Part shown: piece by piece, positions 1 to 31,640 of the stretch
Numbering within the stretch: the stretch's first letter is position 1
Layout: the number at the start of each line of letters is the position of its first letter
Source of the DNA: Malacoraja senta
Lineage: Eukaryota
Assembly: GCA_038087875.1 (NCBI GenBank)
Contig: CM075991.1
Coordinates: 11,100,001-11,164,000 of the forward strand
DNA length: 64,000 nucleotides
Reading direction: 5' to 3'
The notes under the pieces: generated by a model
The model's database searches: none
Told to the model about the DNA's origin: nothing
Seen by the model: the letters and a program-made list of their open reading frames with translations, nothing else
Translations under genes and position numbers: made by a program

Positions 1-815
1 TATCATTCTCTCTCAGTCCCATTCTTCTGCCTTCGCCCCATAACCCCTGACACCTTTACTAATCCAGAATCGGTGAATCTCCATTTAAAAAATATCCATT
101 GACTTGGCCCTCACAGCCGTCTGTGGCAATGAATTCCGCAGATTCACCACCCCTGTGTGAATGTTGTGCACATGTTTCCCTTTCTTCTCCTGTACTGCAC
201 AACCCAACATTTGTTGTCATAGGGTGGAAGCAGAGAGTATGTGTGTGTCAGAGATGTTTTACATACGCGATATATTTCCATTATCTGCAATCAGAGGCCA
301 CCACTGTAATCGCCCCCGCACTTCACCACCCCCCCCCCCCCTACCCCTTCTTTGCAGGCACCATACAAAGGGGCGACCGTCCCCGACTGCCTCGCACGTA
401 CTTCCATCCCCACCAGCAACCATTCTGCTTTGGCTAACATTCTCTTATAAAGCACACCATCCCCCTATGGTTTGACAAAAAGTTTCGAACTGAAATAATT
501 CTCTCTCCGCAGATGCCGCCCGAGCCTTTACCTGTTAAAATCGGAATGTTCTGTCTATATTTCAGATGACCTATACTTCATAATTTTTAGGAGCAGTATT
601 AGGCTGCTCGGCCCATCAAGTCTATTCCGCCATTCAATTATGACAGATCTATCTTTCTCTCCCTCAACCCCATTCACCTGCCTTCTCCCCATTACCCCTA
701 ACACCCGTACTAAAGATAGTTTGTTTTATACTTTACAGGAAGTTAGTAATCTGTTTCTAACCCCGGCACTGATTTGTTTCCAGAGGTGATAATTTCCTTT
801 CCCTTTCTGTTGCAG

Positions 816-1714
816 TTAACTTGGTGGCGATCGTCATCCTGTCCCGGGGAAAATGCGGACTCTCCAAATGTATTACTCGCTATCTGGTTGCCATGGCTGT
901 GGCCGATGTAATGGTGGTGATCGTCGAAGTCGTACTGAAACGGATTAACAACATTTATTTGCCGGTAAATATTTTGTTCATCGCTCCAGTCTGTGCCATG
1001 AAACTAGTTTTAAAACACGTAGCCCTGGATTGCTCTGTCTGGTTCACTGTCGCTTTTACCTTTGATCGTTTTGTGGCCATTTCCTCTCCAAACCTCAGAC
1101 CAAGGTATTGTACCACAAGGACAGCAAGTGTGGTTATAGCAAGCGCGACGGCAGTGGCCTGTTTGAGGGACATCCCTCATTATTTTATGTATGAACCCAG
1201 ATATATTATTAACAACATCCCGTTTTTCTGCGTTGAAACCGCTGCCTACTATACTTCGCCTCTGTGGGCGGCTTACGAGTGGTTCGACAGTATCTTAACC
1301 CCTTTGGTACCAATCTTCCTCATCCTTCTATTCAACGCCCTTACCGTGAAACATATCATAAAGTCCAATAAAATCCGTAGGGCGCTCATGAATAAAGTGG
1401 ATGAACGCAATGATTCTGAGAGCGAAAACCGTAAGAAGTCCATGATTTTGCTTTTTACTCTGTCTGCCAATTTCATCCTTCTCTGGGTAACATATGTTGT
1501 ACATTCCTTAAACTGGCGGGTAAAAAACTATAACTACACAGACAGATATTACACCAACCCGATATACATCAACCAGCAAACAGGTTACATGTTGCAACTA
1601 CTGAGCTCCTGCACCAACACGTGTATCTATGGACTGACGCAGAGGATGTTCAGACAGGAGCTGAAAAATGGAGTGAAATATCTGGTTACACTGAATGGGA
1701 AACTCTGTAAATAG
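816..1714 (+). CDS. GPR139/GPR142-like class A GPCR, array copy 1, exon 2 (exon 1 lies upstream of the window)
   Basis: Acceptor ttctgttgcag|TTAAC at 815/816; open to TAG at 1714. Hydrophobic TM segments with AVAD (TM2), FTFDRF (DRY variant) and NTCIY (NPxxY variant). Bases 1-815 match the intron of copies 3 and 4. Confidence 0.9.
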
Positions 1715-2869
1715 GAAGCTACGGACATAAAGCCGTCCCGGTGTTGTAGTGTCTCTTCCTGCTAATCGGATTCTATTCTTCAGAACTGGAAGATGGGAGA
1801 TGAAACGGATCTAATAGTGGATTAACCATACACATTGGTAGAAGAAACCAATGAATTGGTACAGCCCCTCGCATTAGATTTGATATTAAAGTAACTCCTC
1901 TTATTTGACTAAATCAGAAGCAGAGAATAGAGAATGAATAAATAGGCAGTTTTCTAGTAAACAGAAGGAACTCACATCAATCATTTGCAAGAATACCTGA
2001 CTGATTTGGAGTAATTATGAACACTGAGTTTAGAAAATGTGTCATGGTTTTAAACTTGACCATTTCCATTGTAATTCATTTGAGATAAGATTATGCAGAA
2101 GTGGGCTGTAAATAGTCAATTGCAAGATAAGCTATGAGGGTTTTTCAAATAGTGAGGATAGTGAAGTTCATTCAAAGCAGAGTTGGAGTCGTGGAAAGCA
2201 GCCACATCTAGATCTCCATAGATGCAAAGAAATGGATCAAAATTATGGGGATTACTTCACACACTGAGTACCTCACATAGGAGAAGCTGGAGTGGATAGA
2301 ATGTGCAGAAGTGAAGGTAGAAAGGGAATTCAGAGAGCGGACAGGGTACATTGTTGTGGCTTTCATTGTAAATCTGTCTCACGTACAAGGTTTTGTTCCA
2401 CTGGTGGCAGGGGGAGATAAGAAAGGATAGGATGGTTCCTATCGGAAACCGAAGACCACTCAGGATTGGTGGAATGCGTATCAATGTGCATTCTGGATGA
2501 ATCTTCATTGGAGGTAGTCAATGGAAAATGAATAATTTGGGGGGCACATGAATAGAGGGGGCACATTAATGGTCAAGCATTTTTAAAAGTGCAAAGGTTA
2601 CCCGGTCAATTTTAATTCATTTTATGTTCATAAGGAAGCCTGGGATTATATGTCCCAAATCCTAAATATAATTTTTGAATGTTATCTAATCCAAAACTGA
2701 GTGCTGAAAGTCTGCTGACGTTGCACTTGTACTTGGGATTGGACAATGGTAGACTGAATGTTTACAGTCACGAATATCACACGTGGACATATTACAACCT
2801 TGATTCACCCTCGTTGTAATAGTTAGAGAGCCACAGTTTACAAAGCGATAAAAGTATATTAAGGGCACA

Positions 2870-3590
2870 AAGGAAAGAGATGTGGAGGTGGAGGGCGAGA
2901 GGGTGGCAGAGAGGGATTACGAACGGTGAGAAGGGTCAGTGGGAAAGAGATACAGATAGAAATGTAAAGAAGATAGACAGGTGGGGGAGGAGGAGGCGGT
3001 GGAGGAGAAGGGGACATAGGGAAGAGAGAGGTAGAGAAAGAGATAGGGAAAGGGAGAGAGGGATAAAGGAGGGAAAAGAGAGAGAAAGTGATAGAATAGA
3101 GGGGTGTGACAAAGGGGAGACAGATGGATACATAGAGAGAGTGAATAGACAATAGACGATAGGCAATAGGTGCAGGAGTAGGCCATTCGGCCGTTCGAGC
3201 CACACCGCCATTCAATGTGATCATGGCTGATCATCCCCAATCAGTACCCCATTCCCGCCTTCTCCCCATATCCCCCAAAAAGGGGAGAGTGAGGCAGAAA
3301 GAGAAAGGGAGAAAAATTGGAGAGAGGGGAAGAGAGGTGGTGAAAGAGATGGGAGAGAGATGGAAGAGAGGAGGGAAGAAGAGAGAGAGGGAAGGAGGTA
3401 GAGAGAAAGGAGACAGGGAACGAGGGCGAGGGGCAAGACTGAGAAGAGATACACGTGTGGAGAGACAGGGAGGAAGAGAGAGACAGAGAGAGGGAGATGG
3501 GGGGAGAGAGGAATAGAGAAAGAACAATACACAGAAAGAGGTAGTGAAAGAAAGAGATGGAGATATAGAGTGACAGGGGAGAACAGAGTG
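2870..3590. repeat. GA-rich polypurine low-complexity tract (paralog at about 11590-12210)
   Basis: Almost only G/A on the + strand; part of a block (2806-3857) duplicated at 11528-12470. Confidence 0.85.
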
Positions 3591-3860
3591 AAGCTTCAGT
3601 TGAAATGTCCACAAGAGTGAATGAAAAGACGATGTTCAAGCAATCTCATAATTTACTGAAGGGACTCAGGAAGCCAAACCACACTGTGGAAGACGTTAAA
3701 GGAGATGCGGTGATACAGGGGAGTGCAAACTTACCGGGGGCTCTTCTTTAATTTAGTAGGGATACACAGACCAATATTCATAGGAGCAGGCCATTGAGCT
3801 CAAGATATCTGTATCTACAACGATGCCAACCAATACCGTGTATATACATGTGCCTGTACA

Positions 3861-4360
3861 TGGTTCACTGTCGCTTTTACCTTTGATCGTGTTGTGGCCA
3901 TTTCTCTACAAACTTCAGACCAAGGTATTGTACCACAAGGACAGCAAGTGTGGTTATAGCAAGCGCGACGGCACTGGCCTGTTTGAGGACCGTGAAACAT
4001 ATCATAAGGTCCATTAAAATCCGTAGGGCGCTCATGAGTAACGTTGATGAAGGCAATGATTCTGAGAGCGAGAACCGTAAGAAGTCCATGATTTTGCTCT
4101 TTACTCTGTTTGCCAATTTCATCCTCCTCTGGACACCATATTTGATACATTCCATAAACTGGCAAGTGACAAACTGCAATTACGCAGACAAGTATTACAC
4201 CAACCCGATATTCATCAACCAGCAAACAGGGTTCATGTTGCAACTACTGAGCTCCTGCACCAACACTTGTATCTATGGACTGACACAGAGGAAATTCAGA
4301 CAGGAGCTGAAAAATGGGGTGAAATATCTGGTTACACTGAATGCGAAACTCGGCAAATAG
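3861..4360 (+). pseudogene. GPR139-like copy 2, truncated pseudogene
   Basis: Homology starts mid-TM3 (WFTVAFTFDR) with no promoter or exon 1. A 1-nt deletion near 3903 shifts the frame. An in-frame 174-nt (58-codon) deletion joins LACLR to TVKHII, removing ECL2 and TM5. Confidence 0.9.
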
Positions 4361-4678
4361 GTTGGCAATCTGTTATATCTGTAGGTTTGCCTTCATCGAA
4401 CTCTTCTGTACCTGTGGGATAATGGCTTGAAACAAGCTTGAGAAGGGATAGACAAACTGGAACAAAATGATACATAGACAAACTGGAACAAAAATTGAAT
4501 TTCTTGTCTCAGTTCCTACCCCTAATTTATATAATATATTAACCATGTTGGTTAAAAAAAAAATTTAATCAGTGTATGAACAAATTCAATGAAGGTGCGG
4601 TAAAGGGGAAGGAATATAAAATAACATACTTTGGTTATTTGTATGTTTTTGGAGTATTTAGCAATGAATACTGACAAC

Positions 4679-5135
4679 ATCTAACTCTCTCTTGAAAGTA
4701 TCCTGAGAAGTGCCCTCCACCGCTCTCTGAGGCAGAGAATTCCACAGACTCACAACTTCCTGTGAGAAAAAGTATTTCTCATCTCCGTTCTAAATGTCTT
4801 ACCCCTTATTCTTAAACTGTGGTCCCTGGATTCTGGACTCCCCCAACATGGCGAATAAGTTCCCTGCCTCTAGCATGTCCAAGCCCTTAATAATCTCATA
4901 TGTTTCAATAAGTCCCCTCTCATCATTCTAAATTCCAGAGTACACACGCCCAGCCGCTCCATTCTCTCAACATATGACAGTTCCGCCATCCCGCGAATTA
5001 ACCTCGTCAACCTCTGCTGCACTCCCTCAATAGCAAGAATGTCCTTCCTCAAATTTGGAGACCAAAACTGCACACAATACTCCAGGTGTGGTCTTACAAG
5101 GGCCCTGTACAACCGCAGAAGAACCTCTTTGCTCC
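4679..5135 (-). mobile_element. CR1-clade LINE ORF2 3' fragment (paralog at about 8370-8890)
   Basis: Minus-strand translation LVRPHLEYCVQFWSP...[10 protein letters not shown]...RGDL is the typical CR1 ORF2 C-terminal region. Confidence 0.85.
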
Positions 5136-5904
5136 TATACTTATAACTTTTCTCTTATGACTCTCTATTGAGTCCACCAATAGACATGCGACAAAAAGAC
5201 AATTGTGAATAAAAGTGAAGTTGTCAACATTCGTCCAACAAGAGATCAACGTCGCTCCGTGTGTTACCTTCTGATATGAATAAACTTTGAGCATTTGTGT
5301 GCATTCTACAATCATATTTTCTGGATTGTCTTCAAAACGGTCAGCGCCGCCCTTCAGGTAACTGCTGTCTGTTTTAGGAGCAGACTTGGGCCATTCGACT
5401 CTTCACGTCTACTCCGCCATTCAATCATGGCTGATCTATCGCTCCCCCCTAACCCCATTCTCCTGCCTTCGCCCCAGAACCTCTGACGCCCGTACTCATC
5501 AAGAATCTATCTATCTCTGCCTTAAAAATATCCACTGACTTGGCCTCCTCAGCCTTCTGTGGCAAATAATTCCACTGATTCTGGTAGCTCTGCGAATATG
5601 CTTACAGAGACGATTTGTCTGCAAATCAGATGAAAAATCCCCAGACTTCTTAATGTGGCAACCTTTTGGGGATTTATATGGAAAAATTGTGTTTTCTGAA
5701 AAAAATACAAAACAACTTTAAAATAGCCTGTAAAGCATCTTCTGCGGTTGGTTCATTAACTCAGGTTATTTAATTACATATAACAGAGTGCACTCCAACT
5801 AAGTGTCCCAGCAGACCATCCCTTTACATATAAGGGAGGTCTCGTGTAACCAAACTGACACCTTGCAGACATCGCCTAATCGGCAACTGTCCTTGACGCA
5901 TAAC

Positions 5905-7803
5905 ATGGGCTATCCGGTCATCTTTGTGTTTGAAAGTATCTACTATCCTATTCTTGCAGCAGTCGGCATCACAGGTAAGGAATGGAACCAGTCACTGTGC
6001 ATGATATTGTGAAGGTTCCTGAGTTCATTTGGTCTAGGAGCAGAATTAAGCAATTCGACCCATCAAGTCTACTCTGCCATTCAATCATGGTTGATGTATC
6101 ATTCTCTCTCAGTCCCATTCTTCTGCCTTCGCCCCATAACCCCTGACACCTTTACTAATCCAGAATCGGTGAATCTCCATTTTAAAAATATCCATTGACT
6201 TGGCCCTCACAGCCGTCTGTGGCAATGAATTCCACAGATTCACCACCCTTGTGTGAATGCTGTGCACATGTTTCCCTTTCTTCTCTTGTACTGCACAACC
6301 CAACATTTATTGTCATAGGGTGGAAGCAGAGAGTATGTGTGTGTCAGAGATGTTTTACAAACGCGATATATTTCCATTATCTGCAATAAGAGGCCACCAC
6401 TGTACTCGCACCCTCACTTCACCCCCCCTCCCCCTTCTTTACACGCAGCATACAAAGGGGCGACCGTCCCGGACTGCCTCGCACATATTTCAATCCCCAC
6501 CAGCAACCATTCTGCTTTGGCTGACATTCTCTTATAAAGCACATCACCCCTATGTTTTGACAAAAAGTTTCGAACTGAAATATTTCTTTCAGCGCAGATG
6601 CTGCCCGAGCCATTACCTGTTAATATCGGCATGTTCTGTCTATATTTCAGATGACCTATACTTCATAATTTTTAGGAGCAATATTAGGCTGCTCGGCCCA
6701 TCAAGTCTATTCCGCCATTCAATTATGACAGATCTAGCTCTCTCTCTCTCAACCCCATTCACCTGCCTTCTCCCCATTACCCCTAACACCCGTACTAAAG
6801 ATAGTTTGTGTTATACTTTACAGGAAGTTAGTAATCTGTTTCTGACCCCGGCACTGATTTGTTTTCAGAGGCAGGAGATAATTTCCTTTCCCTTTCTGTT
6901 GCAGTTAACTTGGTGGCGATCGTCATCCTGTCCCGGGGAAAATGCGGACTCTCCAAATGTATTACACGCTATCTGGTTTCCATGGCTGTGGCCGATGTAA
7001 TGGTGGTGATCGTCGAAGTCATACTGAAGCGGATTAACAACATTTATTTGCCGATAAATATTTTGTTCATCACTCCAGTGTGTGCCATGAAACTAGTCTT
7101 AAAACACGCAGCCCTGGATTGCTCTGTCTGGTTCACTGTCGCTTTTACCTTTGATCGTCTTGTGGCCATTTCCTCTCCAAACCTCAGACCAAGGTATTGT
7201 ACCACAAGGACAGCAAGTGTGGTTATAGCAAGCGCGACGGCACTGGCCTGTTTGAGGAGCATCCCATATTATTTTATGTATGAACCCAGATATATAATTA
7301 ACAACATCCCGTATTTCTGCGTTGAAACCGCTGCCTACTATACCTCGCCTTTCTGGGTGGGCATTGAGTGGTTCGACAGTATCTTAAACCCTTTCGTTCC
7401 AATCTTCCTCATCCTTCTGTTCAACGCCCTGACCGTGAAACATATCATAAGGTCCAATAAAATCCGTAGGGCGCTCATGAGTAACGTTGATGAAGGCAAG
7501 GATTCTGAGAGCGAGAACCGCAAGAAGTCCATGATTTTGCTCTTTACTCTGTCTGCCAATTTCATCCTCCTCTGGACACCATATTTTATACATTCCTTAA
7601 ACTGGCAAATGATAAACTACAATTACGCAGACAAGTATTACACCAACCCGATATTCATCAACCAGCAAACAGGATTCATGTTGCAACTACTGAGCTCCTG
7701 CACGAACACTTGTATCTATGGACTGACACAGAGGAAGTTCAGGCAGGAGCTGAAAAATGGGGTGAAATATCTGGTTACACTGAATGGGAAACTCTGCAAA
7801 TAG
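5905..7803 (+). CDS. GPR139-like GPCR copy 3, intact; join(5905..5974,6905..7803), 322 aa
   Basis: Exon 1 MGYPVIFVFESIYYPILAAVGIT ends ACAG|gtaag (phase 1). Exon 2 starts after tgcag and reads (V)NLVAIVILSRGKCGLS...GKLCK*. Total 969 nt with no stops. Confidence 0.92.
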
Positions 7804-8109
7804 GTTGGCAATCGAACTCTTCTGTACCTGTGGGATAATGGCTTGAAACAAGCTTGAGAAGGGATTAAATACATAGACAAACAGGAACAAAAATAGAATT
7901 TCTTTTCTCACTTCCTAGCCCTAATGTAATTGATACATTAACCATGTTGGTTAAATTATTTTTTTAAATCAGTAAATCAACAAATTCAATGAGGGTGCGG
8001 TAAAGGGGAGGGATTATAAAATAACATACTTCGGTTATTTGTATGATTTTGGAGTATTTAGCAATGAATACTGACAACATTATTTCCCCCCGTCATTATT
8101 GGTGATAGG

Positions 8110-8248
8110 AGGGTGGGAGATTGCAACCTTTACATAGTCCGCCCTGTTTCGACCAATGCAATCAACCCGGCGTGCACAATCAAATAAGAACAAATAGAAC
8201 AAGTTGTCCCTACAACTTTAGGCTGCGCAAGCCATACGCAAGAAGAAG
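8110..8248 (+). mobile_element. Short retroelement 3' end with (GAA)n tail; second copy at about 55995-56135
   Basis: Absent from the paralogous flank at about 16070; bounded by an imperfect duplication attggtgatag / attggggatat. Confidence 0.65.
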
Positions 8249-9579
8249 ATTGGGGATATGCTAATTTTACTAGTCTGAGATTAGATTATGCTGCAGTTGA
8301 TAGGAAATAAGTATTTAAATGTAAAATGATGAAGGTTTCATTCTAATCATTTATGTGATCATTGATCATCCATAATCAGTACCCCCGTTCCTGCCCTCCC
8401 CATATCCCCTGACTCCGCTTTCTTTAAGAGCCCTATCTAACTCTCTCTTGAAAGTGTCCTGAGAACCGGCCTCCACCGCCCTTTGAGGCAGAGAACTCCA
8501 CAGACTCACAACGCTCTTCGAGAACAAGTATTTCCTCATCTAAATTTTAAATGTCTTACCCCTTATTCTTAAACTGTGGTCCCTGGATTCTGTACTCCCC
8601 CAACATCGGGAATATGTTCCCGCCTCTAGCGTGTCAGAGCCCTTAATAATCTCATATGTTTCAATAAGACCCCTCTCATCGTTCTAAACTCCAGAGTATA
8701 CATGCCCAGCCGCTCCATACATATGACAGTTCCGCCATCCCGTGAATTAACCTCGTCAACCTACGCTGCACTCCCTCAATAGCAAGAATGTCCTTCCTCA
8801 AATTTGGAGACCAAAACTGCACACAAAACTCCAGGTGTGGTCTTATAAGGGCCCTGTACAACCGCAGAAGGACCTCTTTGCTCCTATACTTATAACTCTT
8901 CTCTTATGACTCTCTATTGAGTCCACCAATAGTCATGCGGCAAAAAGACAATTGTGAATAAAAGTGAAGTTGCCAACATTCGTCCAACAAGAGATCAACG
9001 TCGCTCCGTGTGTTACCTTCTGATATGAATAAACTTTGAACATTTGTGTGCATTCTACAATCATATTTTCTGACTCTTCAAGTCTACTCCGCCATTCAAT
9101 CATGGCTGATCTATCGCTCCCCCCTAACCCCATTCTCCTGCCTTCGCCCCAGAACCTCTGACGCCCGTACTCATCAAGAATCTATCTATCTCTGCCTTAC
9201 AAATATCCACTGACTTGGCCTCCTCAGCCTTCTGTGGCAAATAATTCCACTGATTCTGGTAGCTCTGCGAATATGCTTACAGAGACGATTTGTCTGCAAA
9301 TCAGATTAAAAATCCCCAGACCTCTTAATGTGGCAGCCTTGTGGGGATTTATTTGGAAAAATTGTGTTTTCTGAAAAAAATACAAAACAACTTTAAAATA
9401 GCCTGTAAAGCATCTTCTGCGGTTGGTTCATTAACTCAGGTTATTTAATTACATATAACAGAGTGCACTCCAACTAAGTGTCCCAGCAGACCATCCCTTT
9501 ACATATAAGGGAGGTCTCGTGTAACCAAACTGACACCTTGCAGACATCGGCTAATGGGCAACTGTCCTTGACGCATAAA

Positions 9580-11499
9580 ATGGGCTATCCGGTCATCTTT
9601 GTGTTTGAAAGTATCTACTATCCTATTCTTGCAGCAGTCGGCATCACAGGTAAGGAATGGAACCAGTCACTGTGCATGATATTGTGAAGGTTCCTGAGTT
9701 CATTTGGTCTAGGAGCAGAATTAAACAATTCGACCCATCAAGTCTACTCTGCCATTCAATCATGGTTGATCTATCATTCTCTCTCAGTCCCATTCTTCTG
9801 CCTTCGCCCCATAACCCCTGACACCTTTACTAATCCAGAATCGGTGAATCTCCATTTTTAAAATATCCATTCACTTGGCCCTCACATCCGTCTGTGGCAA
9901 TGAATTCCACAGATTCACCACCCCTGTGTGAATGTTGTGCACATGTTTCCCTTTCTTCTCCTGTACTGCACAACCCAACATTTATTGTCATAGGGTGGAA
10001 ACAGAGAGTATGTGTGTGTGTGTGTCAGAGATGTTTTGCAAGCGCGATATATTTCCATTTTCTGCAATAAGAGGCCACCACTGAACTCGCCCCCGCACTT
10101 CACCCCCCCCCCCCCCCCCCCCGCCCCTTCCTTGCAGGCAGCATACAAAGGAGCGACCGTCCCCGACTGCCTCGCACATATTTCCATCCCCATCAGCAAC
10201 CATTCTGCTTTGGCCGACATTCTCTTATACAAGCACATCATCCCCCTATGTTATGACAAAAAGTTTCGAACTGAAATATTTCTCTCTCCGCAGATGCTGC
10301 CCGAGCCTTTACCTGTTAATATCGGCATGTTCTGTCTATATTTCAGATGACCTATACTTCATGAATTTTAGGAGCAGTATTAGGCTGCTCGGCCCATCAA
10401 GTCTATTCCGCTATTCAATTATGACAGATCTATCTTTCTCTCTCTCAACCTCATTCACCTGCCTTCTCACCATTACCCCTAACACCCGTACTAAAGATAG
10501 TTTGTTTTATACTTTACAGGAAGTTAGTAATCTGTTTCTGACCCCGGCACTGATTTGTTTCCAGAGAAAGGTGATAATTTCCTTTCCCTTTCTGTTGCAG
10601 TTAACTTGGTGGCGATCGTCATCCTGTCCCGGGGGAAATGCGGACTCTCCAAATGTATTACACGCTATCTGGTTGCCATGGCTGTGGCCGATGTAATGGT
10701 GGTGATCGTCGAAGTCATACTGAAGCGGATTAACAACATTTATTTGCCGATAAATATTTTGTTCATCACTCCAGTCTGTGCCATGAAACTTGTCTTAAAA
10801 CACGCAGCCCTGGATTGCTCTGTCTGGTTCACTGTCGCTTTTACCTTTGATCGTCTTGTGGCCATTTCCTCTCCAAACCTCAGACCAAGGTATTGTACCA
10901 CAAGGACAGCAAGTGTGGTTATAGCAAGCGCGACGGCACTGGCCTGTTTGAGGAGCATCCCTTATTATTTTATCTATGAACCCGGATATATAATTAACAA
11001 CATCCCGTACTTCTGCGTTTTAACCGCTGAATACTATACCTTGCCTTTCTGGGTGGGCATTGAGTGGTTCGACAGTATCTTAAACCCTTTCGCACCAATA
11101 TTCCTCATCCTTCTGTTCAACGCCTTTACCGTCAAACATATCATAAGGTCCAATAAAATCCGTAGGGCGCTCATGAGTAACGTTGATGAAGGCAATGATA
11201 CTGAGAGCGAGAACCGTAAGAAGTCCATGATTTTGCTCTTTACTCTGTCTGCTAATTTCATCCTCCTCTGGACACCATATTTTATACATTCCTTAAACTG
11301 GCAAATGACAAACTACAATTACACAGACAAGTATTATACCAACCCGATATTCATCAACCAGCAAACAGGGTTCATGTTGCAACTACTGAGCTCCTGCACC
11401 AACACTTGTATCTATGGACTGACACAGAGGAAGTTCAGACAGGAGCTGAAAAATGGGGTGAAATATCTGGTTACCCTGAATGGGAAACTCTGCAAATAG
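9580..11499 (+). CDS. GPR139-like GPCR copy 4, intact; join(9580..9649,10601..11499), 322 aa
   Basis: Same two-exon GT-AG structure as copy 3, with 12 amino-acid differences by manual comparison. Confidence 0.92.
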
Positions 11500-14087
11500 A
11501 TTGGCAATCTGTTATATCTGTAGGTGTAACCCTCGTTCTAACAGTTACAGTGGCACAGTTTTCTAAGCGATAAAAGTATATTAAGGGCACAAAGGAAAGA
11601 GATGTGGAGGTGGAGGGGGGGGGTGACAGAGAGGGATTACGATGGGTGAGAAGGGTCAGTGGGAAAGAGAAACAGATAGAAATTCAAAGAATGGAGACAA
11701 GTGGGGCTGGAGGAGGGGTGGAGCAAAAGGGGTCTATAGGAAGAGAGAGAAAGAGAAAGAGATTGGGAGGGTGGATGGAGAGAGGGGAGATGGAGAGAGG
11801 GATAAAGGAGGAAAAAGCTAGAGAGAACGTGATAAAATAGAGGGGAATGAAAAAGGGGAGACAGATGGATACATAGAGAGAGCGAAAGAGGAGAGAGTGT
11901 GGCAGAAAGAGAAAGGGAGAAAAAATGGAGAGAGGGGAAGAGGGGTGGTGAAAGAGATGGGAGAGAGATGGAAGAGAGGAGGGAAGAAGACAGAGAGGGT
12001 AGGAGGTAGAGAGAAAGGAGACAGGGGAAAGAGGGTGAGGGAGAAGACTGAGAAGAGAAACTCGTGTGGAGAGACGGAGGAAGAGAGAGACAGAGAGAGG
12101 GAGATGGGGGAGAGAGAAATAGAGAAAGAACAATATACACAAAGAGGTAGAGAGACAGAGAAAGAAAGAGAGGGAGAGATAGTTACAGGGGAGAACAGAG
12201 TGAAGCTTCAGATGAAATGTCCTCAACAGGGAATGAAAAGAACGATGTTCAATGAATCTCATAATTTACTGAAGTGACTCAGGAAGCCAAACCACACTGT
12301 GGAAGACGTTAAAGGAGGTACGGTGATACAGGGGAGTGCAAACTTACCGGGGACTCTTATTTAATTTAGCAGGGATACACAGACCAATATTCATAGGAGC
12401 AGGACATTGAGCTCATGATATCTGTATCTACAATGATGCCAAACAATGCCCTGTATTTACATGTGCCTGTTTTAATGTCAACTGAATGTCGGAATTATCT
12501 GCTTCTACCATCTTTCCCGGCAACACATTCCAGGCATCTATCACTCTCTGTATTAAGAACCGACCTGACAAATCTATAAATATTCCCATCAAAGAAGGGA
12601 AGAAATTGAACTTTTTTTCCCCTTCCATCACAGTGAGGAATGTGGAGGAGTCACTGCGGTGGATGTTCATGTTAAAATGTATTTTGTGTGTTCTGTTGCT
12701 TTTTATTAGCATGAAAGTATGGCAAATCCTTGTATGTTGCAAAACATACATGATTAAAAAAGTATGATTATGATCATGACTATGATTTCTCACCCTAAGT
12801 GTAGGCTCTCTGGTATTTGACATTTTCATCCTGAGAGAAAAAAAAAGTCTCTGACTATCCACCCTATCTATGCCTCTCATCATCAACATACTTTTTTTTA
12901 AGAGCAAAGTTGATGTCAGGTTTAGAACAGGAAGGTCTCTGATAGGATAGAGGGCTGGAGTAATAGAATGACAAAAGGTTAAAGCAGAATACCATTGGTG
13001 ATGGGAAAAGGTAAGAGATGTTAGGTTTAGAGAAGGACTAAGTCGCGAAATAAGTTTATTCTTGCCGAAAGGAAATGGGAGTAATAGTTAAAATGTAAAG
13101 TTTAAATTCAATGTTTTGACTGAAAGGTTTAGCTTAGTTTAGTTTAGAGATAGAGCGCGGAAACATATGACAGTCCCGCCATCCCGGAAATTAACCTTGT
13201 GAACCTACACTGCACTCCCTCAATAGCAAGAATGTCCTTCCTCAGATTTGGAGACTAAAACTGCACATAATACTCCAGGTGTGGTCATACTAGGGCCCTG
13301 TACAACTGCAGAAGGACGTCTTTGCTCCTATACTTATGCCTCTATCCTTGTGACTCTCTATTGAATCCGCCAAAAGCCATGCGGCACATATGACAATTGT
13401 GAATAAAAGTGAAGTTGTCAACATTCGTCCAACAAGTGATCAACGTCGCTCCGTGTGTTTCCTTCTGATATGAATAAACTTTGAGCATTTGTGTTCATTC
13501 TGCAAGCTTAAATTCTGGATTGTCTTCAAAACGGTCAGCGCTGTCCTTCAGGTAACTGTTGTCTTGTATAGGAGCAGACTTGGGCCATTCACCCCTTCAA
13601 GTCTACTCCGCCATTCAATCATGGCTGATCTATCTCTCCCCCCTAACCCCATTCTCCTGTACTCTCCCCATAACCCCCGACTCCCGTACTAATCAAGAAT
13701 CTATGTATCTCTGCCTTAAAAATATCCACTGACTTGGCCGCCTCAGATTTCTGTGGCAAAGAATTTCACTGGTTCTGGTAGCTCTGTGAACATGATTACA
13801 GAGAAGATTGGTCTGCAAATCAGAGTAAAAATCCCCAGACCTCTTAATGTGGCAGCCTTGTGGGGATTTATTTGGAAAATTTGTGTTTTCTGAAAAAAAT
13901 ACAAAACAACTTTAAAATGGCCTTCTGCGGTTGGTTCATTAAGTCAGGTTATTTAATTAAATATAACATACTGCACTCCAACTAAGTGTCCCAGCAGACC
14001 ATCCATCTTCATATAAGGGAGGTCTCATGTAGCCAAACTGACACCTTGCAGATATCGCCTAATGGGCAACTGTCCTTGACGCATAAC

Positions 14088-15549
14088 ATGGGCTATCCGG
14101 TCATCTTTGTGTTTGAAAGTATCTACTATCCTATTCTTGCAGCAGTCGGCATCACAGGTAAGGAATGGAACCAGTCACTGTGCATGTTTTTGTGAATATT
14201 CCTAAGTTCATGAGTTCATATGGTCGAGGAGCAGAATTAGGCAATTCGACCCATCAAGTCTACTCTGCCATTCAATCATGGTTGATCTATCATTCTCTCT
14301 CAGCCTCATTCTTCTGCCTTCGCCCCATAACCCCTGACACCTTTACTAATCAAAAATTGGTCAATCTCCATCTTATAAATAATAATTGACGGCCCTCACA
14401 GCCGTCTGTGGCAATTAATTCTACAGATTCACCACCCTTGTGTGACTGTTGTGCACATGTTTCCCTTTCTTCTTGTGTACTGCAACATCCCAACATTTAT
14501 TGTCATAGGGTGGAAACAGAGAGTATGTTAATGTGTGTCAGGGATGTTTTGAAAGCGCGATATATTTCCATTATCTGCAATGTAGACTCGACCCTGGGAC
14601 TGATTTGTTTCCAGAGGAAGGTGCTAATTTCCTTTCCCTTTCTGTTGCAGTTAACTTGGTGGCGATCGTCATCCTGTCCCGGGGAAAATGCAGACTCTCC
14701 AAATGTATTACACGCTATCTGGTTTCCATGGCAGTGGCCAACGTAATGGTGGTGATCTTCGAAGTCATACTGAAGCGGATTAACAACATTTATTTGCCGA
14801 TAAATATTTTGTTCATCACTCCAGTTTGTGCCATGAAAGTAGTCTTAAAACACGCAGCCCTGGATTGCTCTGTCTGGTTCACTGTCGCTTTTACCTTTGA
14901 TCGTCTTGTGGCCATTTCCTCTCCAAACCTCCGACCAAGATATTGTACCACAAGGACAGCAAGTGTGGTTATAGCAAGCGCGACGGCATTGGCCTGTTTG
15001 AGGAGCATCCCTTATTATTTTACTTATGAAGCAGGATATATAATTAACAACATCCCGTATTTGTGCGTTTCAACCGCTGAATACTATACCTCGCCTTTCT
15101 GGGTGGGCATTGAGTGGTTCGACAGTATCTTAAACACTTTCGTACCAATCTTACTCATCCTTCTGTTCAATGCCCTGACCGTGAAACATATCATAAGGTC
15201 CAATAAAATCCGTAGGGCGCTCATGAGTAATGTTGATGAAGGCAATGATTCTGAGAGCGAGAACCGCAAGAAGTCCATGATTTTGCTCTTTACTCTGTCT
15301 GCCAATTTCATCCTCCTCTGGACACCATATTTGATACATTCAATAAATTGGCAAGTGACAAACTACAATTACGCAGACAAGTATTACACCAACCCGATAT
15401 TCATCAACCAGCAAACAGGGTTCATGTTGTAACTACTGAGCTCCTGCACCAACACTTGTATCTATGGACTGACACAGAGGATGTTCAGACAGGAGCTGAA
15501 AAATGGGGTGAAATATCTGGTTACACTGAATGGGAAACTCTGCAAATAG
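14088..15549 (+). pseudogene. GPR139-like copy 5, probable pseudogene; join(14088..14157,14651..15549)
   Basis: CAA>TAA nonsense codon at 15430-15432 in TM7, before NTCIY. Also TM2 Asp>Asn (AVAD>AVAN) and TM5 Pro>Thr (LNPF>LNTF). Intron shortened to 493 nt (vs 930 and 951). Confidence 0.85.
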
Positions 15550-17619: not shown

Positions 17620-18686
17620 AAATAATACTATAATACTATCTATTAGGTACATTATTGACAGAAATATTATATATTAGTACATTATTTTATAATTTACTTG
17701 AGTACTATATATTATAAGTACTCAAGTAAATAATATAACTAATATACAATACAATACCGTTTATTGTCATTTGAACCTCAAATGAAGTTCAAACGAAATT
17801 TGGTTTCTGCAGTCATACAACAAGAAAAGAACCAAGACACACACCAACACAATTTACACATCCATCACAGTGAATCTCCTCCTCACTGTGATGGAAGGCA
17901 AAGTCTTGTCTCTCCCCTGCTCTCCATTCTTCTCCCGATGTCAAAGTCATATATAATATATAATATTTCAGTCAATAATGTACCTAATAGATAGTATATA
18001 TATATTATATAGTACTCAAATAAATTATATATAATTTACTTGAGTACTATATTGACCAGAATTCTATATATTAGTTAAATTCTTGACTGGAATATTATAT
18101 ATATATATATAATATTCCAGTCAATAATTTACTATGATAGTTTACTATGATATTTAATATAATATTCCAGTCAATAATTTACTATGATTCACGAGAGTAC
18201 TATCAGAAATATTATATATTAGTTATATTATTTACTAGAGTACTATCAGGTACATTATTGACTGAAATGTTATATATTTGTTATATCATTTACTAGAGTA
18301 CTTACTATCTATTAGGTACATTATTAACTGGAATATTATATATTATATTATTTACTAGAATATTATATTTAATTCTATCACTGAGCATTTATAATTTATA
18401 TATAATTTACTTGAGTACTATCATTGACTAGAATACTATATATTAGTTAAATTATTGACTGGAATATTATATATATATATATGATTCACGAGAGTACTAT
18501 CAGAAATATTATATATTAGTTATATTATTTACTAGTACTATCAGGTACATTATTGACTGAAATGTTATATATTAGTTATATTATTTACTAGAGTACTTAC
18601 TATCTATTAGGTACATTATTAACTGGAATATTATATATTATATTATTTACTAGAATATTATATTTTAGTTCTATCACTGGGCATTT
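17620..18686. repeat. AT-rich degenerate satellite with direct and inverted blocks
   Basis: Recurring tactatc(tatt)aggtacattattgactgaaatattatatattag motif. 18184-18390 repeats at 18482-18686; about 17955-17995 is an inverted copy of about 17634-17675. Confidence 0.8.
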
Positions 18687-18699
18687 AAACGCAGTTGAT

Positions 18700-18835
18700 T
18701 CGGTGGCCAATGGGGAGCGGTGTTGGTAGCGAGCTCGGTCATTGGTTGGCCGGCAGCCAATGGAATGCCGGCGGCGCCGGGTGCCAGCCAATAGCGTGGG
18801 GCGGTTGCAGGCGGCCGGCCACTGATTGGCCGGGC
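18700..18835 (+). promoter_or_regulatory. GOT1L1 promoter: five CCAAT boxes and a GC box in a CpG island
   Basis: CCAAT at 18707, 18757, 18788; ATTGG at 18741, 18825; GGGGCGG at 18798. CpG-rich from about 18690 to 19270. Confidence 0.7.
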
Positions 18836-18846
18836 CGCCGCCGGGC

Positions 18847-19173
18847 GTTGCCATGGAGACGCGGCCGAGCGCCATGGCGGGGCCCAGATAGCGCGGGTTG
18901 CCATGGAGACGCGGCCGGGCGCCATGGCGGGGCCCAGATAGCGCGGGTTGCCATGGAGACGCGGCCGGGCGCCATGGCGGGGCCCAGCTGGCGCGGGTTG
19001 CCATGGAGACGCGGCCGGGCGCCATGGCGGGGCCCAGCTGGCGCGGGTTGCCATGGAGACGCGGCCGAGCGCCATGGCGGGGCCCAGATAGCGCGGGTTG
19101 CCATGGAGACGCGGCCGAGCGCCATGGCGGGGCCCAGATAGCGCGGGTTGCCATGGAGACGCGGCCGGGCGCC

Positions 19174-19183
<10 letters not shown>
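18847..19183 (+). repeat. 50-bp GC-rich minisatellite, 6 full units plus 1 partial, each with GTTGCCATGGAGAC (RFX X-box)
   Basis: Units start at 18851, 18901, 18951, 19001, 19051, 19101, 19151. The last unit runs into the GOT1L1 ATG at 19174. Confidence 0.95.

Positions 19184-31640
<12,457 letters not shown>

Follow-up and report, generated by a model that had tools for sequence, protein, structure and literature searches.

Introduction

Promoter repeats that multiply the binding sites of a transcription factor have been described for EGFR, where a TCC repeat is linked to Sp1, for the reduced folate carrier, where a 61-bp repeat is linked to Sp1/AP2 (PMC3899988), and for hTERT, with the MNS16A repeat and GATA1 (PMC5438627). 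For genes under RFX control, mouse Got1l1 is scored "yes" for RFX2 ChIP and has a logFC of -2.45 in Rfx2 knockout testis at P30, in a study where RFX2 peaks cluster at the start site (PMC4498915 and its S1 Table). In ependymal cells the same gene has an RFX1 peak at -35 and an RFX3 peak at -16 and is classed as "Down high" in two comparisons (PMC7498320). Mouse Got1l1 is reported as testis-high, which agrees with the testis enrichment that an earlier note on the DNA studied here ascribed to mammalian GOT1L1, and its product keeps aminotransferase activity (PMC4282708). The mouse protein has been placed tentatively in the C1b part of the sperm central apparatus, an assignment that its authors call uncertain (PMC12297659). 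Here we describe a locus in the skate Malacoraja senta at which a minisatellite repeats a putative RFX X-box at the start of GOT1L1; the stretch analyzed, 64 kb in length, is referred to as the window.

Structure of the array

The 14-bp motif GTTGCCATGGAGAC has seven exact matches, annotated without strand at 18847, 18897, 18947, 18997, 19047, 19097, and 19147 (18847 + 50n, spanning 18847..19160), so the exact 50-bp spacing described in the earlier note is confirmed. Elsewhere in the 64 kb there are no further matches at up to two mismatches, against 0.46 expected, and none of 100 shuffles reached seven. All seven lie, one per unit, in a GC-rich minisatellite on the forward strand (18847..19183) with a period of 50, 6.7 copies, 97% matches, and 0% indels; they are a single tandem array rather than the product of seven independent events. 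Each unit comprises the X-box, the first codons of the gene, and a 13-bp spacer, and the units stand head to tail in genomic DNA and exceed 10 bp, as in minisatellites generally. Only three of the 50 unit columns vary (22, 42, and 44), the X-box is free of variants, and three unit variants follow one another in an ordered pattern.

Sequencing data were used to judge whether these copies exist outside the assembly. Twenty-four runs were matched, one of them containing more than half of the sequence words, and four were examined on the promoter and unit 1; no RNA run was among those matched, a result that does not bear on expression. Two of these, X1 and X2, share an organism label and a study and differ in sample code. 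The joint that leads from 18896 back 50 bases to 18847 is present in contigs of both (two of the four runs), and a 130-bp contig of X2 consists of 30 + 50 + 50 bases in tandem, equal to 2.6 consecutive units. In X1 the contig depth is 5.7 on the promoter and 23-29 on the unit, a depth that does not equal copy number. Runs X3 and X11, from other organisms, yielded no contigs for the promoter and unit 1, an absence that can be false. The array is real tandem DNA: the contigs carry tandem units but cannot count copies, and seven is the figure of the assembly. The artefact that the earlier note had allowed for, a single X-box mis-assembled as seven, is already largely refuted by the tandem joints in two runs, the consecutive units within one contig, and the ordering of the unit variants; that X1 may be the source sample and that copies are uncountable from contigs speak for it, and we consider it very improbable.

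The period is not close to five helical turns, as had been suggested, since 50 bp makes 4.76 turns at 10.5 bp; the periods of 32 and 30 bp deduced below for a sawshark make 3.05 and 2.86. Helical phasing of the X-boxes is thus ruled out, the 50-bp spacing being out of phase. Translation of the whole array as protein was also ruled out, because 50 is not a multiple of three and four of the six full units contain a stop. Two database matches were set aside. The sole metagenome match to the first 20 bases of the unit (L001) is single-copy with unrelated flanks and was taken as chance, and the single weak phmmer match to the array-coded extension plus exon 1 among 1.84 billion proteins (P0149) is a repeat protein matching the exon part.

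Probable RFX sites and upstream promoter

The earlier note had recognized an RFX X-box in this motif, and comparison with bound sites upholds that reading. The skate 14-mer is the core of a MAP1A probe whose complexes are supershifted by anti-RFX1 (PMC2859551), and its reverse complement is the validated X-box of C. elegans bbs-5 (PMC3245922); it thus matches experimentally bound 14-bp sites. It also lies less than about 500 bp from the gene start, within a start window of -500 to +500 taken from PMC5838959, and the array overlaps the start codon, which served here as the gene start. Two looser RFX consensuses match the array and have one and two other sites in the window. The stricter GTNRCC(N0-3)RGYAAC, which we take to be an RFX consensus, has no site in the window. 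Given that RFX binds the 14-mer elsewhere and directly targets Got1l1 in the mouse, a single X-box in skate GOT1L1 would, by analogy, very probably be functional.

Five CCAAT boxes of the NF-Y type were found by motif search just upstream of the array, where the earlier note had placed them, starting at 18707(+), 18741(-), 18757(+), 18788(+), and 18825(-) within 18705..18831. Five of five fit RRCCAATVR, which we take as the CCAAT-box (NF-Y) consensus, and four of five fit RRCCAATSR. This is the densest 130-bp window for CCAAT in the 64 kb (five, against three in the next best and 0.26 expected), and none of 20000 local shuffles reached five. Together with a match to GGGCGG, presumably a GC box, at 18799..18804 on the forward strand, the CCAAT boxes fill the roughly 140 bp ahead of the array, and no TATA box is found in the 18705-18831 stretch. 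The pairing of X-boxes with NF-Y sites to which the earlier note referred is documented by the enrichment of Y-boxes within RFX1-3 peaks (PMC7498320).

The surroundings are also repetitive. A very AT-rich patch with direct and inverted repeats (17940-18680) ends just before the CCAAT boxes; it contains 39 inverted pairs and a 132-bp duplication whose two copies, 98% alike, are spaced 295 bp apart, and could act in nucleosome exclusion or hairpin extrusion. The forward strand at the start of intron 1 (19300-19950) carries degenerate repeats rich in G and one long run of G, with a GC skew of 0.61, giving the stretch predicted potential for G-quadruplexes or R-loops. Farther upstream, a tandem cluster of single-exon rhodopsin-family receptor genes lies on the forward strand within 773-15432, with one gene identified by Pfam 7tm_1 (773-1714) and, as ORFs, two others (6835-7803 and 10531-11499), one whose frame ends early (14509-15432), and a partial copy near 3887-4360.

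The GOT1L1 gene

The last array unit continues into an exon matching "aspartate aminotransferase, cytoplasmic-like" of Leucoraja erinacea and Hemitrygon. Nine coding exons occupy 19153-31640 on the forward strand: exon 1 at 19153..19291, and by homology exons 2-5 at 20793-20974, 22448-22571, 24261-24370, and 25589-25693 and exons 6-9 at 27231-27381, 28442-28607, 29244-29386, and 31481-31640. All eight introns are GT-AG. Translated with an X at one break, the skate protein is identical to that of Amblyraja at 411 of 425 positions (97%) and to that of Leucoraja at 404 of 424, which places the source among the rajid skates. Phylogenetically, the window protein groups with Leucoraja and Amblyraja at 100/99. 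A tree built from 44 of the matched proteins, none of them a mammalian GOT1L1, unites 13 chondrichthyan rows with two unlabelled amphibian rows and with 12 that bear the name "putative aspartate aminotransferase, cytoplasmic 2", which we take to denote GOT1L1, and sets this clade apart from GOT1 and the outgroups at 100/100. On this phylogenetic evidence the gene is a GOT1L1 orthologue, as the earlier note had called it. A similarity search of PDB ranked GOT1 (442 bits) above chain 9ijj_4R, which bears the "cytoplasmic 2" name (299 bits), an order that we put down to fast evolution; the exon 1 peptide matched nothing relevant in PDB.

The reading frame of exon 9 breaks at four consecutive A (31504-31507, forward strand), leaving a spliced length of 1280 nt and a stop after 398 aa rather than about 426. 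The 1-bp deficit is either an assembly error or a real allele, and if real the gene may be decaying. Up to the break the frame has no in-frame stop, and all splice sites are intact. Private amino-acid changes number 10 on the skate lineage, seven in Leucoraja, and one in Amblyraja, and its end branch is 0.029 against 0.009 and 0.005.

At the active site, the PLP lysine is replaced by Thr in three named skates and in Narcine (P0002, P0006, P0139, and P0142), and exon 6 of the window reads SFSTNF. The columns that should hold K258, R266, D222, N194, and R386 in an active enzyme, in what we take to be the residue numbering of aspartate aminotransferase, read T, G, Y, R/Q/W, and Q in skates. R386 is lost in all 26 rows of the GOT1L1 clade save one without that column, and further catalytic columns are altered across the clade. 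With these changes the skate protein is probably a pseudo-enzyme, which would agree with a structural function in the axoneme.

Start codons and upstream ATGs

Exon 1 offers two in-frame start codons. The ATG at 19174 (MAGLSVF) is the start conserved across vertebrates, and the ATG at 19153 (METRPGA-), seven codons ahead, is the centre of the last X-box. Upstream, between 18853 and 19141 on the forward strand, there are 12 further ATGs, two in each of units 1-6 and all in the context GCCATGG. Ten of the 12 open short or out-of-frame ORFs, of 12 and 5 aa in units 1, 2, 5, and 6 and of 62 and 55 aa in unit 3, while the two in unit 4 (19003 and 19024) read on in frame into exon 1, adding a 50-aa extension. 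Only for transcripts starting within 18975-19024 or 19125-19174 is the first ATG open and in frame. Because each unit also duplicates two ATGs in the GCCATGG context, a purely additive model of activation is insufficient. As RNA the array folds at -210 kcal/mol; arrays assembled in tandem from shuffled units gave -175 +/- 14.5, and 2 of 60 were as low; a plain folding z-score of -4.5 was discounted in favor of this fairer control, because its shuffles destroy the repeat.

Possible arrays in other lineages

Orthologous promoters were viewed through the protein N-termini of skates, carpet sharks, and a sawshark and through mouse ChIP peaks. The Leucoraja and Amblyraja models begin METRP. In those of Rhinoraja, stingrays, mantas, sawfish, Heptranchias, and Heterodontus the first residue is the conserved Met, which leaves their promoters unaddressed. 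Carpet sharks (Chiloscyllium plagiosum, C. punctatum, Stegostoma, and Rhincodon, and internally Hemiscyllium) carry MET or MEI 10-12 codons ahead of TASLSVF. These proteins (P0029, P0145, P0146, P0147, and P0045) have no Met at the conserved start. From these models, carpet sharks appear to start at an ATG inside an X-box. The Hemiscyllium sequence QVTMEI is compatible with an X-box at two mismatches and represents the one site in 41 residues, so the array would not be universal in GOT1L1 promoters.

The model from the sawshark Pristiophorus japonicus (P0143) has an 83-residue N-terminal extension with X-box-compatible sites in changing frames, a pattern that was spotted by eye before testing. 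Their implied offsets are 29, 61, 93, 123, 155, 185, and 217, a spacing of 30 or 32 bases, and the series ends 32 bases ahead of the conserved ATG. Six of the seven are within two mismatches of the skate 14-mer, a count that none of 2000 shuffles reached (mean 0.27), and none of 624 control windows from the other proteins reached three sites. The seventh is at three mismatches, as is one off-period site, and with three mismatches and the degenerate pattern the test is weak (100 of 2000 shuffles). A motif-free comparison of lags 10-69 gave 62 and 32 as the best; the best single lag was equaled in 5 of 1500 shuffles and the mean of the best two in none of 1500. Similarity to the skate unit extends into the 10 bases that follow the X-box, with 15 mismatches against about 30 expected (14 of 100000). 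Most sawshark units have no central ATG, and a search with residues 1-130 found, among 488 candidates, only the protein itself. Read from a predicted protein rather than DNA, the sawshark promoter thus appears to hold about seven X-box-like units at 30-32 bp. The sawshark and skate arrays would go back either to one ancient array or to the same element being amplified more than once; the split between sharks and batoids dates to about 250-300 million years ago.

Discussion

The account we prefer, and to which we give an even chance, is an RFX-driven skate GOT1L1 promoter whose X-box, overlapping the start codon, was recently amplified into a minisatellite. The array and the gene exist, and the repeated unit is, as the earlier note proposed, the gene's own X-box and start region. 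By close analogy with the mouse gene, RFX dimers are expected on each 14-mer in spermatocytes, spermatids, and motile-ciliated cells, where, with NF-Y on the CCAAT boxes, they would open the promoter. The copies may stem from slippage or from unequal exchange, in DNA that is GC-rich and palindromic and lies at a germ-line promoter; the locus would have been amplified at least twice, or the array would predate the split of skates and sawsharks. Extra sites would then raise RFX occupancy and push initiation to the 3' end of the array. For NRF1, NFY, Sp1, and YY1, though not for RFX, it is reported that the most 3' bound factor tends to set the start and that initiation is depleted between sites (PMC11269187), and suppression of initiation between activator sites is described elsewhere, again not for RFX (PMC13017510). 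By that analogy, we speculate that the penultimate site may place starts in a productive zone at 19125-19153, leading to the METRP start, whereas starts farther up would meet short upstream ORFs and strong structure. Against this, a start lying 16-35 bp downstream of the last X-box would coincide with or follow the ATG at 19174. Also counting against the account are the lack of any sign of selection on the X-box within either array, the lone Hemiscyllium site, the out-of-phase spacing, the reading of the sawshark array from a predicted protein, and the exon 9 break with the private amino-acid changes, which may point to a decaying gene. Since transcripts meet an open in-frame ATG first only when they start in 18975-19024 or 19125-19174, copy number would affect start-site choice and protein output together rather than act as a plain additive dial.

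The copies may instead have been neutral or tolerated, with one functional X-box and the others arising incidentally from an unstable promoter that is GC-rich and palindromic, perhaps at a relaxed or pseudogenizing gene. We regard this as unlikely, though there are points in its favor: the array is very young and homogeneous (97%), the promoter has further unstable repeats on either side, exon 9 is broken and the end branch is longer (0.029 vs 0.009 and 0.005), and mice lacking Got1l1 have been generated and analyzed (PMC4282708). The motif itself shows no specific constraint, as the three variable skate columns miss the X-box with P=0.36 and the sawshark X-box is 87% alike compared with 84% over the following 10 bp. 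Sequencing often drops a single base within an A run, however, and the intact splice sites, the frame open to the break, and the 97% identity to Amblyraja count against this reading. A comparable array, of similar copy number and place, in the distant sawshark lineage also argues weakly against neutrality, given that mutational bias could produce it too.

Two further readings would give the copies a negative effect. The array could be a translational brake in the 5' leader, with NF-Y setting the start near 18850-18900, the ladder of upstream ORFs and the structure lowering or delaying GOT1L1, and unit 4 supplying an N-extended form. The preferred position of NF-Y sites is -120 to -40 relative to the start, which would put starts in units 1-2 (PMC11269187), and the 12 upstream ATGs and the low folding energy (-210 vs -175 +/- 14.5 kcal/mol, 2 of 60 as low) would suit such a brake. 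On annotation, X-boxes would be transcribed in some lineages, the sawshark model spanning the whole array and carpet sharks having no start other than the X-box ATG. With ten strong ATGs closed or out of frame, however, almost no output would be left, and the ladder is not common to both arrays, most sawshark units being without a central ATG; we consider the brake doubtful. Still less probable in our judgment is a silencer outside germ cells, in which RFX1 or RFX3 at or behind the start would block initiation in somatic tissue. In MAP1A, non-neuronal repression is described as requiring two RFX sites of exon 1 (PMC2859551), a distal X-box represses C. elegans F25B4.2 (PMC3245922), and activators bound downstream of a start repress (PMC11269187, PMC13017510), but loss of RFX lowers mouse Got1l1, indicating net activation there.

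Returning to the RFX-driven promoter, a wider form of this account can be put forward tentatively, as possible but on balance improbable. The X-box minisatellite would be recurrent or ancient at shark and skate GOT1L1, with similar copy number and differing unit lengths, and kept because RFX dosage matters for a sperm-axoneme protein. In skates and carpet sharks the X-box ATG would have been taken over as the start, making the 14-mer both factor site and translation start and letting repeat number tune transcription start and translation. The GOT1L1 promoter may thus be repeatedly retuned by repeat expansion. The locus offers a natural series for relating the number and spacing of RFX sites to output, from one apparent site in a carpet shark through about seven at 30-32 bp in the sawshark, both deduced from proteins, to seven at 50 bp in the skate. 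It would also be a plain example of a binding site that serves at the same time as a start codon, in which added activator sites cost upstream ORFs, and even if neutral the array marks a promoter prone to repeat birth.

Among the literature matches listed, in which subscription papers are mostly uncovered, none concerned an X-box minisatellite or an elasmobranch GOT1L1 promoter. Compared with known GOT1L1, the skate gene shares the clade, the nine exons, and the loss of R386; the mouse enzyme keeps its activity, whereas skates, Narcine, and the window have Thr for the PLP lysine. Like mouse Got1l1 and ALMS1 (PMC4498915, PMC7498320, PMC2913254), the skate promoter has an X-box near the start, is TATA-less and GC-rich, and combines a GC box with Y boxes; it differs in having seven identical sites, the mouse data giving one peak per factor, a figure for peaks and not for X-box copies. 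Multiple RFX sites are shared with MAP1A, whose exon 1 contains the same 14-mer, and multiple X-boxes per gene with C. elegans F25B4.2 and seven other genes (PMC3245922), but MAP1A and F25B4.2 have two sites and the skate has seven by tandem amplification. As in EGFR, the reduced folate carrier, and hTERT, a unit of minisatellite size holds a whole binding site beside the gene start. Unlike in those genes, the factor in the skate is RFX, the site overlaps the start codon so that ATGs are multiplied with it, and a parallel array appears to exist in another lineage. A promoter minisatellite that multiplies a factor site is a known kind of element, to which the overlap with the start codon adds an unusual twist.
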